This document shows positions 46,470-61,529 of a stretch of DNA of 64,000 nucleotides, one piece after another. The notes below the pieces were generated by a model. It was not told the DNA's origin, made no database searches, and saw nothing but the letters and a program-made list of their open reading frames with translations. The position numbers and the translations under genes were made by a program. The DNA is from a virus, in IMG/VR virus record IMGVR_UViG_3300047094_002472; one strand, 5' to 3'. How positions within the stretch are numbered: the first letter of the stretch is position 1; each line of letters opens with the position of its first letter.

Positions 46470-46551
46470 CGTAACCCCTTACCAGCATTAAACTTACGAC
46501 TAATTTTCGGGGCCCGGCTTGCCCTAAGTCCTTACGTATTAAAGAGTTACG
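46470..46551. repeat. 82-bp double-palindrome module, copy 1
   Basis: 29-bp box + 24-bp GC-rich spacer + 29-bp box. Confidence 0.85.
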
Positions 46552-46570
46552 TCTAGTGGTCAATGAATTA

Positions 46571-46607
46571 AAAGAAAAGGCCGCAGCCGGTTTCCCAGCC
46601 ACGGCCC
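46571..46607 (-). terminator. Intrinsic terminator after the DUF932 gene
   Basis: GGCCGTGGCTGG-GAAA-CCGGCTGCGGCC followed by TTTTCTTT. Confidence 0.85.
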
Positions 46608-46634
46608 TTCCCCTTTTCATCGTGACACGAAAAG

Positions 46635-47585
46635 TTAGATAGCGTTCGCAAACTCCAGAGCAGTCGTTAACGCCTTGCTGTTATCGTTCGCGTTCTGACC
46701 GAACCAGAGCGAATCGAGCCGGTTATCGGTCGTGCGACCCTTGTTATAGTTAAGGTATTCATTGTAGCCGTTATAAGCAGCCCACCAAGTACCCCTAACA
46801 CCCGTTGCTGATTGCTTCGGCCCTTCGACCAGAGCAAGAATCTCGTCCATGATATTTCTGGTGCGAGTCTTAACATCTTCGTCGGGCGTACCTTCGATGC
46901 CCAGCATCGACTTAACATATCGACGAATATCACCCTGATTAAAGTTCTTGCTAGCGAGGAACCGAAACTGTTCCGCAGTAGCCTCGAACTGGACATTGAT
47001 ATTATCCATAATATCTCGAACCTGTTCCAGATTCTTCTGGCTGGAGCGAGTGTGTCGAATCCGAATCAACTGCGAACCGCTACCCTTGCTATGGGCCATT
47101 GCCATCGTGTTAGCACACACAACACGAATCGGGGTGTAGCCGACGCGAATTGCAGTTGTACCATCATGGCTGTTAGACAGAAGGATAAACTTGGAAACCT
47201 CATCACCCTTCACGATCTCGCTATTGTCGCGGTTGAGTTGAGCGAGAACCCACACCTTTTGACCGCTATGGAGCGATCCGGCAGTATGAAGTTGGCACTC
47301 GTTAGCATCAAGAAACGGCTGAAACCAATCGAAAGCATCGCTGTTTTGCAGCGGAGTATATCGCGGGCCAACAACACCCAAGATAGAGTTGTCGGTTTTG
47401 CGATAGGTTGCACGAGCCGGAACCGGAGTACCTTCGCTCGTAAACAAATCCTTAAGACCAACCTCCCAGTCCAGACCAGCGGCGGTAATTGCCTCGCTAA
47501 TCGTGGGAGCCTCATCCAACTGATTGCCAAGACCATGCCACGGAGTAGCACCAACAAACATCATCTGTTCAACTGCATGAGCCAT
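46635..47585 (-). CDS. DUF932 phage/plasmid-like protein
   Basis: PWHGLG, AGLDWEV, YTPLQN, LSNSHDG, TPIRVVCANT, GTWWAAYN. Confidence 0.9.
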   Translation of the reverse strand: MAHAVEQMMFVGATPWHGLGNQLDEAPTISEAITAAGLDWEVGLKDLFTSEGTPVPARATYRKTDNSILGVVGPRYTPLQNSDAFDWFQPFLDANECQLHTAGSLHSGQKVWVLAQLNRDNSEIVKGDEVSKFILLSNSHDGTTAIRVGYTPIRVVCANTMAMAHSKGSGSQLIRIRHTRSSQKNLEQVRDIMDNINVQFEATAEQFRFLASKNFNQGDIRRYVKSMLGIEGTPDEDVKTRTRNIMDEILALVEGPKQSATGVRGTWWAAYNGYNEYLNYNKGRTTDNRLDSLWFGQNANDNSKALTTALEFANAI

Positions 47586-47628
47586 CTCATTAACCTTTCG
47601 TGTTATCGTACTTCGTTCAACTCCACCT

Positions 47629-47669
47629 ATTCTACAGTATGTTATCGGCTTGTCAATAGGAAATCTTGC
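47629..47669 (-). promoter_or_regulatory. Composite sigma70 / sigma28-like promoter
   Basis: TTGACA-16-TAGAAT with GCAAG-15-GCCGATAA. Confidence 0.7.
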
Positions 47670-47685
47670 GAAAAAATTTTCTCGT

Positions 47686-47767
47686 CGCAAGGTGTTGATA
47701 CGTAAGGAGTTACGTCACGCGGGGCCGCCCCGCCTCGCCCTAAGTTCTTGGCGGGCCTGGATTTAAG
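47686..47767. repeat. 82-bp module, copy 2 (right box degenerate, overlaps the PRTase stop)
   Basis: Same 29-24-29 geometry. Confidence 0.8.
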
Positions 47768-48246
47768 AACAGTGTGCCAAAGTCACGTTCAAAAAGTTTA
47801 GCGTTCTCGGTGTTGTACGCACACTCATCTGGCATATAACAATAAACGCCAACACACCTAGATTTAGGGCATTCTTCGTAGATAGTATTCTTAATAAATT
47901 TTATAGTAGAACCAGAGCAAACCAGATCATCAACAATAACGTACCTAAAAGGAATCACGCCCTCTATAGCAAAACCACTATATGATTTTGTTTCTGGCTT
48001 TCTAATTACAACAATATGCTTATCTAGCAATTCTGCTATTTGCGGAACAACCATTAGTCCGCTAGTTCCGCAGCAAACGATACTATCAAACTGATTGCTA
48101 ATTCTACGCAGATCGCAAATTGCCTTAATGATAGCCTTATTACGAATCTTATGATTCAATACCATACAGGTGTGGCTAGCACCTTGGATAACCTTACCGT
48201 CTGCCATTACCCTGAAATCGTCTACGTTCTGATTCAGCGTATTCAT
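47740..48246 (-). CDS. Type I phosphoribosyltransferase-like protein
   Basis: GTSG, VIRK, VIVDDLVCSGST (PRPP-binding motif). Confidence 0.8.
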   Translation of the reverse strand: MNTLNQNVDDFRVMADGKVIQGASHTCMVLNHKIRNKAIIKAICDLRRISNQFDSIVCCGTSGLMVVPQIAELLDKHIVVIRKPETKSYSGFAIEGVIPFRYVIVDDLVCSGSTIKFIKNTIYEECPKSRCVGVYCYMPDECAYNTENAKLFERDFGTLFLNPGPPRT

Positions 48247-48249
48247 AAG

Positions 48250-58813: not shown

Positions 58814-58869
58814 GTTTTCCCTTTCGTGTTGGTTTGATTCTAGCAAAACTCTTTGGTGAGTGTCAAGCC

Positions 58870-59058
58870 CTACTTTGAATAATTGTAGGCATCCAAACCC
58901 AACTTGCGACGAATCACGCGAATGGTTTCCAGATCCTCAATGAGCATCTTGGTCAGATTCTCACTTACTCCGCTTTCCACCAGAGAAGCCATATTCTGCT
59001 CACTGGTTTTCAGCAGAGCAGCCACAACGATTTCTTCACTCACAGTCAACTTTTCCAT
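58870..59058 (-). CDS. Hypothetical protein
   Basis: Own promoter. Confidence 0.55.
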   Translation of the reverse strand: MEKLTVSEEIVVAALLKTSEQNMASLVESGVSENLTKMLIEDLETIRVIRRKLGLDAYNYSK

Positions 59059-59227
59059 CTTTCACTCTCTCTTTCTTATGCTGAATTATACCTAAGAGAT
59101 CGTCAAAAGTCAAACGCAATGTTTAGAAAATTATCCGATTTTCCCTAAGTCCTTATCTGGCCGGCTGTTGCGTCTAACCGTTTTCTTTAGGTGCTACAGT
59201 GGACACATGGTATCGTGAGAAATTGCT

Positions 59228-59309
59228 CGTAAAGCGTTGGTATCAAACAACTTACGGCAAGCGGGGCGGCGCCGGCTCGCCCTAAGTCCTTATGTGTCAA
59301 CCACTTAGG
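59228..59309. repeat. 82-bp module, copy 11
   Basis: 29-24-29; extra lone degenerate box at 59144-59172. Confidence 0.9.
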
Positions 59310-60006
59310 TTAAGAGTTAATCACCCAAGCAACCACACAACCGAAAGCAAAGGATACAGAAAGCACTACCTTATCGTAAAGATTCATTATTTCTTCCTTA
59401 TAGGAAAAACCAAATCAGAAACAAACCAAGCACTACCAATACCAACAACAAATCCCACAAGCATCCACGTCCAATCTATATCTATATTATCGAACATCCC
59501 GTGTTCCTTTCTTTAATCCTTTTTATATCCTACGAGCCACCGAACACCATCCTCATCTGTACTGATAAATCCATCAGTCCCAAACCCCGCATCATTCAAT
59601 TCTTTTTCGGCCATTCTTTTACACAGGGTATCCCCAATAGCAAGCACAGCACAAACCAATCCCATGATAATAATACCCACCACAAACAGGCAAGCCATAG
59701 CGATTAGTTCAGGACTCATTTGGTAAGGTTCCAAGTATAGACGTTATCGTTCACCTTTACGCATCTTACATCAGAGATCGGCAAATGTCCAGTGCGAACA
59801 TTAGAGCAATCCGGAAAGAACTCTCTCACAATCTTATACGCTTCGAGCGTATTCTTAGCACGAACGAAACCAACAGCCGAACCATTCTGATAAACTTCCA
59901 AAGTCATCTTCTTTTCCTCTTTCTTTCTCATACCACGATTCTACACTACTAATATCGGCTTGTCAAGCCTAGCCACATGAATTTTTTCAGATTTTTTATT
60001 TTGCGT

Positions 60007-60088
60007 TGTAAGTCTATATGTAGCATATACTTAGGGCGAATTTCGCGGCGCCGGCTCGCCGTAAGTCCTTTGTTCACAACGCCTTACG
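60007..60088. repeat. 82-bp module, copy 12
   Basis: 29-24-29. Confidence 0.9.
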
Positions 60089-60706
60089 ACGCCTGAACAA
60101 ACACTTCCTTAGATGGTTGGCCTACTGAACAAATGGTCACAAGCCAATTCTTTCCGCTACCATCTTCCGGCCGAATACCATTCACCAAACCCTTTACAGG
60201 CTTGCAATCATGGCTTACCAGAATGATTTCACGACGAGTACGCATAGCCTCAACCAACCAAGCAAAAGAATAAACGCTCATTTTGTTTCCTTTGAGATAG
60301 CCTGATAAAGATTCCAACATTCGTCAAGAGTGAGGTAATTACCCATAATTTCCCCATTCACATACAGCACAAAGCGATCACCAATCCGATTAGCGGTTGT
60401 CCACCAGATATGTTTCTTGTTTCCCATGATCACATTATACCTTATCGGATAGTTTGTTGTCAAGCGTTAGTTTTTCATACTCTCAAAAAACTTCTTTACG
60501 CTTTCATCATTCATCATCATATCTTTATTCACAATCGGCATAGCATATGCCTTTTCACGAATCTGAAGATTCTTAATTCTCTTACTTGCATTCTTCATAG
60601 TCTTATTCATCATCTTCTTTCTCTCTTTCTTTCTTACTTCTTATATCGACATTATACCAAAGATTCTTTAAAAGTCAATACTATACAAATGTTTTTTTAG
60701 ATTAGA

Positions 60707-60788
60707 TATAACTCGTTACGGGATAAGCACTTACGTCAAATTTTGCGGGGCCGGCTCGCCCTAAGTGCTTACGTAGCAACTACTTACG
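60707..60788. repeat. 82-bp module, copy 13
   Basis: 29-24-29. Confidence 0.9.
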
Positions 60789-61447
60789 TTTACTATTCAT
60801 ATCCTTAAGAATAGCAACAATCATAGCCAATTCGCTACTCGTCTGATTCGGGTTCATCGTATTCCCTTTCGTCTTCTTCGAGCCAATCAGCATAATCATA
60901 CAGTGGGTCAGGGCAACTCATCTCTTTTCTCCTTTACTTCTTATATCGGTATTATACCACAAAATCTTTAGGAATCAATACTGTACCGATATTCACCAAT
61001 CAAAATATCCTTCTTCGTATTCCTTAACCATCTTCTCTCGCATATCGTCCGATACCTTATGCTCATCGCACAGTCTATTCAGATCCTCCCGCGATTCTCC
61101 TTCGAAACCCAGCGAGCGAGCCATATACAGCAGATCGTTTTCCATTGTTCTTTCCTTCTTCTCTTGTGTTGTATCTATTATACAGTATCGGCTATTTGTG
61201 GTCAATACTGAACATTTGTTTTTTCTAGAATAGAATCTAAATGAATTTCCCCATTCTCTACAACCCACCCATATTCCTTAGTAGGAGTATACGTCCCAAG
61301 ATAATATTTCCCATCACTATATCCCTCGTATCCAACCCCAAATCCCATGAACGTGATAGCCAAAATCATATCGTACATTATAGCCTCTCTTTCTTATATA
61401 TACAATATCGACATATCCCAACGTATACTTGAAAGATATTTATTTAA

Positions 61448-61529
61448 CGTAAATCCTTGCTACATAAGTACTTAGGACAAATTTTGCGGGCCATACTCGC
61501 CCTAAACTCTTGCCTCATAAGGCTTTAGG
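61448..61529. repeat. 82-bp module, copy 14
   Basis: 29-24-29. Confidence 0.9.

Follow-up and report, generated by a model that had tools for sequence, protein, structure and literature searches.

Eighty-two-bp double palindromes as candidate protein-docking modules of mobile early-promoter cassettes in a large T4-related lake phage

A stretch of 64,000 nucleotides from a viral genome (IMG/VR record IMGVR_UViG_3300047094_002472; the window from here on) carries 14 copies of an 82-bp element, the module, in which two palindromic 29-bp boxes flank a 24-bp spacer. With a probability that we put at roughly 55%, the module can be read as a phased protein-docking site, predicted to form the upstream half of a mobile early-promoter cassette similar to the promoter-early stem-loop (PeSL) cassettes of other phages. 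The window comes from an uncultured lake phage with a genome of about 240 kb, a large relative of T4 which encodes rIIA, a DNA ligase, a clamp-loader-like ATPase, a transfer-messenger RNA (tmRNA) and nine tRNAs. No close cultured relative was found for this phage: DNA matches to isolate phages were confined to tRNA genes, and the identity of rIIA reached at most 32%. The comparisons described here cover 80 IMG/VR loci, which were recruited by a search with the DUF932 protein encoded next to the array (46635-47690), and a family alignment of 393 distinct 82-mers taken from these relatives.

Direct reading bore out the 14 modules and starts listed in a preliminary description of the window, all of them with the exact 29 + 24 + 29 bp layout. 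A symmetrised weight matrix built from their 28 boxes gave 31 matches in the whole window, namely the 28 module boxes and three lone boxes (45990-46018, 46375-46403 and 59144-59172) that had also been reported, and no further sites. With the same matrix, a shuffled window gave 0-1 matches, and all the real ones are restricted to 45.9-61.5 kb. The module has a clear polarity, box A reading CCTAA...TTAGG and box B CGTAA...TTACG, and the spacer begins with GCGAG. The 7-bp cores and the N4 positions of the boxes are free to vary, with about 0 bits at core positions 13-17 across the 393 copies. The spacer had been described as simply drifting in sequence, a view that does not hold for the family, where G/C makes up at least 95% at spacer positions 9-15 of the 393 copies and several flanking positions are also conserved. 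As originally pointed out, the box centres lie about five helical turns apart, the distance of 53 bp being equivalent to 5.05 turns at 10.5 bp per turn.

Scanning the relatives with the weight matrix, as suggested in the preliminary description, recovered the module in 69 of the 80 loci, and 53 bp again separates the box centres in 493 of about 530 close pairs. Each of three relatives that are complete, with terminal repeats (238-244 kb), contains 14-16 copies, all of them within a single stretch of about 18 kb, and a control pattern gave 0 matches. Among relatives, the modules occupy orthologous positions between the same gene families, with variable small-gene cassettes lying between them.

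The genes of the array are encoded on the minus strand and, along the direction of transcription, the same order is found: the end of a gene (or a tRNA), the module, a UP-element-like A/T tract, a promoter and the next gene. The A/T tracts and promoters noticed earlier downstream of the modules are real and belong to the minus strand. These promoters are composed of TTGACA and TAtAAT separated by about 17 bp, with CCGATA inside, and a strong sigma70-type promoter is found within 110 bp of 351 of the 393 distinct modules. In the window, 49 such promoters are present on the minus strand versus 7 on the plus strand, many of them without a module, which indicates that only some early promoters are supplemented by a module and that the promoter itself does not include it. 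Measured from the module end to the -35 hexamer, the distances cluster around 18, 28-29 and 39-40 bp; a period of 10.5 bp fits best (R = 0.64), with a p-value that is only nominal owing to the relatedness of the copies. Six of the 14 gaps in the window measure 27-29 bp and three more (17, 40 and 41 bp) match the other peaks. For the commonest gap, of 28 bp, the box centres would be located at about -78 and -131, assuming that the -35 hexamer starts at about -36. Such a phasing is expected for a factor acting together with RNA polymerase on one face of the DNA, and it is unexpected for a terminator or a recombination site.

Variation among lineages is coordinated between the copies of each genome. 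In the class I modules, TAAGT is found in 336-337 of 340 inner arms of box A and in 277 of 340 inner arms of box B (58 of the others read TAACT), whereas in the class II lineage (10 loci, 61 modules) both inner arms carry TAAA[G/C] in 61 of 61 modules. The spacer measures 23 bp in nine of nine modules of locus L021 (IMGVR_UViG_3300044949_001703, 15-11153), whereas the orthologues of these modules in up to 64 other genomes all have a 24-bp spacer. Moreover, in 11 of the 80 relatives, one of them a complete genome of 138 kb, an unrelated paired palindrome (type 2, the 82-bp module being type 1) occupies the same slots before the same promoters. This alternative element, 42 bp long, has one copy of CTGCCAAAATGGCAG (TGCCA-N3-TGGCA) on either side of a 14-bp spacer with a G/C core, and in the four copies read in locus L044 it stands 14-16 or 25 bp ahead of the -35 hexamer. 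Such coordinated and symmetric changes in half-sites and spacers suggest a dimer that acts in trans and would differ in specificity or reach from lineage to lineage.

One of the two alternatives advanced in the preliminary description, in which a dimeric or nucleoid protein would bind a phased array of sites to control early promoters, fits this evidence, since the palindromic consensus lacks compensatory change, the modules are in helical phase with the promoters, and half-sites and spacers change in a coordinated manner genome by genome; binding itself is a prediction. In this regard, pairing within boxes amounts to 70.6%, versus 72.0% in shuffled columns, so conserved palindromic positions show no compensatory change. 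We infer from these observations that a protein binds the module and affects transcription. The 82-bp module would then work at the DNA level, as a platform with four CSTAA-N4-TT half-sites arranged in two 29-bp dyads that flank a stiff core of G/C only, and it would travel in a composite cassette followed by the A/T tract, the sigma70-type promoter and a leader. A dimer, or a dimer of dimers, would probably occupy both dyads on a single face of the DNA, which would be bent or looped, and binding could serve the tuning, shut-off or insulation of roughly 15 strong early promoters. If a protein does dock there, the module would represent a compact and portable control element for strong host-type promoters, with a strict geometry and natural specificity variants, which would help to explain the timing and insulation of early genes in large uncultured phages and offer a source of orthogonal operator/regulator pairs.

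Several points weigh against the docking-site reading. Genes for HU or IHF (PF00216), for which a search had been suggested, are absent from three complete relatives, and a gene family tracking the module type was not found up to 10 kb to either side. Regarding this last result, the complete type-2 genome has 122 of its 205 open reading frames in common with a type-1 genome at a median identity of 53%, which makes the two too distant for a screen of gene presence and absence. A Pfam scan of 95 open reading frames of the window revealed no typical sequence-specific regulator domain among 25 of the 47 matched families. The copies come, moreover, from related genomes, so that the phasing and covariation statistics are not based on independent samples, and strong gene conversion among copies could have produced the coordinated changes without any binding factor. 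In this line, likeness at variable positions is 0.55 between orthologous and 0.49 between paralogous modules, values from which descent and gene conversion are not separable. Finally, both-sided changes in the inner arms amount to 65 cells versus 42.7 in shuffles, above all of the 500 shuffles made, as would be expected from a nucleic acid stem.

Such a stem would be of the PeSL type: the inner arms (columns 19-29 and 54-64) would pair across the G/C spacer, either in RNA from read-through transcription or in a DNA cruciform, and would terminate or stabilise the upstream transcript before the next promoter. The start of a module often lies at a stop codon or a few bases from it, the cassettes are separated by no other terminators, and the inner arms form an almost perfect inverted repeat, 77% of the cells being paired, in which the C24:G59 pair becomes T:A in class II. 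We nevertheless regard a central stem as unlikely, because the covariation signal stems from the lineage-wide class II switch, whose commonest arrangement has a C-C mismatch at 23/60, where pairing is below chance, and because 89 of 119 copies lack a pair at position 28/55. For a terminator, in addition, a T-run after the stem is missing, terminator-like sites are not enriched (17 versus 11.9 ± 3.7), and helical phasing to the promoter would not be needed. RNAfold z values reach only about -1.4 on either strand, the predicted structures being heterogeneous. The outer arms share the motif of the inner ones yet pair with nothing; both their pairing with each other and that of the whole module as a single hairpin equal the expectation. 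A search of the window against Rfam found the tmRNA and tRNAs only, with nothing at the modules at gathering score. A bound protein might also act as a mere roadblock, specific for one orientation, halting read-through RNA polymerase and thereby insulating the cassettes without any contact to the downstream promoter. The stoperators of mycobacteriophage L5, an array of intergenic repressor sites, offer a precedent for this arrangement, and the modules are intergenic, keep a single orientation and come right after genes in a chain of strong promoters devoid of intrinsic terminators. This possibility appears quite unlikely, as it predicts neither the 10.5-bp periodicity of the spacing to the -35 hexamer nor the joint gain and loss of module and promoter.

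Recombination has to be considered in two forms. The modules might be a substrate for homologous recombination or gene conversion that spreads promoter cassettes, as in the mini-circle model for PeSLs (PMC2839356, PMC4122927), with conserved positions devoid of any regulatory role. Locus L075 fits that model, since a cassette of gene families 5 and 18 has been transposed there with all three new junctions at modules, and copies within a genome change in concert. Likewise, genomes differ between families 5 and 20 by a whole unit made up of module, promoter and leader: the gap between these genes measures 8 bp in the window and in L002, and 164 bp in L022 and L025, where the additional unit begins 1-2 bp past the stop codon. 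We consider it improbable, however, that recombination is the whole function, given that conservation is limited to the motif positions, with cores and N4 positions free to vary, which argues for selection on sites and not on homology length. Invariant spacing and promoter phasing would be left unexplained, and the downstream region, free of modules, is equally plastic. Moreover, in a crude adjacency test, successor conservation was 0.42-0.45 across modules versus 0.30 elsewhere, so that synteny breaks are not enriched at modules. The comparison of cassette order that had been advocated in the preliminary description gave single clear rearrangements at modules, but no enrichment of breaks there in this crude test, and an inserted unit whose boundaries lie outside the box cores. 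Lake-metagenome contigs aligned to 45500-62000 show many short-sided joints, some of them between modules (47714 to 54382, 57771 to 50769 and 60072 to 54341), which are uninformative, being unitig-level at 90% likeness. The second form is site-specific recombination at sites related to integron attC, pdif or Xer sites, the other alternative advanced originally. The 11-7-11 layout of inverted arms does resemble the core sites of tyrosine recombinases, and host Xer enzymes could act on them in the absence of a phage recombinase, but this idea is largely refuted and its residual likelihood is very small. The 7-bp cores are uninformative, not being conserved between copies, tyrosine (PF00589) and serine (PF00239) recombinases stay below threshold in four complete relatives, no attC-like folding signal is detected, and the ends of the segment gained or lost do not fall in box cores. 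Furthermore, the conserved TAA is placed at the outer end of the arm and not beside the core as in dif.

Two kinds of protein can be considered as ligands of the putative docking site. A host IHF-like protein is one candidate, because the geometry of every dyad is that of an IHF core made palindromic. The IHF site is defined as WATCAA-N4-TTR, with AA steps 9 bp apart (PMC1874591), and about 90% or more of the boxes have TT (10-11) and AA (19-20) at this distance, with TTA four bases beyond AA. The exact match to the IHF consensus noted earlier at 47688, YAANNNNTTGATW, is real. The more general claim that every half resembles an IHF site has partial backing: CAA-N4-TTR is found in 51-58% of outer arms and in 14-25% of inner arms, and the WAT part is not conserved. 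IHF-assisted promoters (PMC1874591) also resemble the present ones in having the site centre upstream of an A/T tract similar to an UP element. Unlike IHF sites, the boxes are palindromic, have their strongest bases in TTA(C/G)G instead of WATCAA and come in fixed pairs, and relatives of this phage use a wholly different palindrome. The other candidate is a phage-encoded, co-evolving regulator, proposed because the module type and the half-site variants change genome by genome.

Related sites are also found in cellular DNA. A pattern scan of species-representative bacterial genomes revealed box-24-box at one conserved intergenic locus in at least about ten metagenome-assembled genomes (MAGs) of the Acidobacteriaceae type (Terriglobales) and in one Gemmatimonas MAG, with arms reading ...GGACTTAG. 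Box-24-box(-box) sites of this cellular kind are located at L135 2108-2220, in L179, L193, L092 and L151, and at L081 6173-6254, all in high-GC MAGs; the Acidobacteriaceae locus L135 is an ordinary intergenic region and not an origin. Nor did the matches listed for this module type include an origin site in Planctomycetes. In five high-GC genomes (four Acidobacteriaceae and one Gemmatimonas) similar single boxes occur 1-11 times per genome versus 0-1 for the control, from which it follows that some cellular protein plausibly has a specificity of this kind, and the Acidobacteriaceae and Gemmatimonas sites look like an uncharacterised cellular regulator motif. Contigs with several modules have also been binned in MAGs of many phyla (L087, L099, L101, L143, L158, L199 and others), under labels that include Planctomycetaceae, Gammaproteobacteria, Planktophila, Methylococcaceae and Alphaproteobacteria, and these are probably mis-binned phage DNA.

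Regulation by phage proteins at multiple upstream sites has well-known examples in p4 of phi29 at A2b, A2c and A3, TF1 of SPO1 and gp71 of L5 at its stoperators. As in the array described here, these systems comprise pairs or arrays of dyads for a dimeric phage protein, near or upstream of promoters used by the host polymerase, which switch early transcription; in contrast to them, a candidate regulator gene for the modules has not been found. To our knowledge, 14-16 copies with a rigid 29 + 24 + 29 layout have no counterpart among phage regulator arrays, and a literature search for earlier descriptions of such double palindromes gave nothing relevant. As a tentative extension of the docking-site reading, which we hold to be possible but rather less than probable, this lytic giant-phage family might govern its entire early programme with one dedicated dimer-of-dimers regulator, either phage-encoded or delivered with the virion, docked on about 15 phased double operators, with a specificity that is swapped or retuned between lineages (the CSTAAGT, CSTAAAS, 23-bp spacer and TGCCA-N3-TGGCA types). 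If that were the case, there would be a parallel with the immunity types of temperate phages, here transferred to early-promoter cassettes which also move between genomes.

Among the systems described so far, PeSL cassettes of T4-type phages come closest (Arbiol et al. 2010, PMC2839356; Comeau et al. 2014, PMC4122927). Both are repeated composite elements that lie among small early genes where the genome of a large T4-related phage is plastic, and both show the same succession of upstream element, AT-rich tract, sigma70-like promoter, Shine-Dalgarno site and start codon, with the element being gained, lost or moved along with cassettes. The upstream part of a PeSL is a simple terminator-like stem-loop, whereas here it is an 82-bp double dyad of invariant geometry with a G/C core, which lacks hairpin covariation and a T-run and is helically phased to the promoter; nor are insertions and deletions enriched at the modules, as judged by the crude adjacency test, in spite of single clear cases. 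The module is best classed as a PeSL-related element, with the same place, promoter half and mobility, which does not show the defining stem-loop and has in addition a rigid double-dyad geometry and phasing. We infer that, in this phage family, the module has been selected as a binding platform and not as a terminator or a recombination hotspot, which would refine the PeSL idea in that the repeated element beside the promoter becomes a candidate binding platform.

In the order of transcription, the first module of the window (61448-61529, like all the others on the minus strand and with box A, the 24-bp spacer and box B in succession) has no strong sigma70 promoter downstream. It is followed by the module at 60707-60788, with a promoter at 60678-60651 (a gap of 28 bp from the module end), and by that at 60007-60088, which overlaps the stop codon of the open reading frame 60084-60320 and has its promoter at 59966-59938 (40 bp). 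Between the module at 59228-59309 and its promoter (59113-59085) we find the lone box at 59144. The module at 58363-58444 precedes a promoter at 58332-58304 (30 bp), whereas the one at 57745-57826 abuts the stop codon of the frame 57827-58138, with a promoter at 57708-57681 (36 bp). Three modules in a row keep gaps of 27-28 bp: 56802-56883, with a TTGCAT...TATGAT promoter at about 56773-56745 (28 bp), 55882-55963, with a promoter at 55853-55826 (28 bp), and 54343-54424, with a promoter at 54315-54288 (27 bp). The module at 53163-53244 abuts the stop codon of the frame 53245-53616 and is followed by a promoter at 53121-53094 (41 bp), and that at 52441-52522 lies downstream of a tRNA-Arg gene, with a promoter at 52412-52384 (28 bp). 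A weaker promoter at about 50710-50682 (17 bp) accompanies the module at 50728-50809. The module at 47686-47767 overlaps the stop codon of the frame 47740-48246 and stands 29 bp from the promoter (47656-47629) of the DUF932 gene. The last of the array, at 46470-46551, precedes a promoter-like site at 46436-46408 (33 bp), and the remaining lone boxes are located beyond it. The abutting and overlapping stop codons agree with those given in the preliminary description, and its statement that a module typically follows a stop codon is accurate for about half of the modules, which lie within 33 bp of the stop of an open reading frame of at least 40 amino acids, and not for the rest, which follow a tRNA or a longer gap. 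Regarding the promoters, their spacer carries GCCGATAA with CAAG(A/T)TT 11 bp upstream (for instance, on the minus strand, at 47629-47680, 52384-52436 and 54288-54339), a combination that fits a putative sigma28/FliA-type promoter interleaved with the sigma70 hexamers.

Other features were found in the window and its relatives. The phage-encoded tmRNA is located at 27931-28289 on the minus strand (108 bits with Rfam) and specifies the tag peptide GTTQLALAA, and seven of the nine tRNAs lie within the module array (49050-50255 and 52577-52649). At 63498-63992 there is a tandem array with a period of 45 bp and about 10 copies, 81-95% alike, placed in a plus-strand open reading frame that begins at 63017 and continues past the end of the window. 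A repeat of about 50 bp, which holds AAATCCGTAGGATTA on the plus strand, is found near modules at 44964-45013, 46260-46309 and 54145-54194. It is kept in L044, a locus with the other palindrome type, at 3714-3769, 8915-8970 and 11419-11474, immediately before the modules, and could correspond to a small RNA or to a shared gene end. Relatives also contain extra inserts between conserved early genes, in L015 at 4995-5778 and in L018 and L022 after a tRNA near 7700-8800, whose Cys-rich open reading frames look like homing-endonuclease genes.

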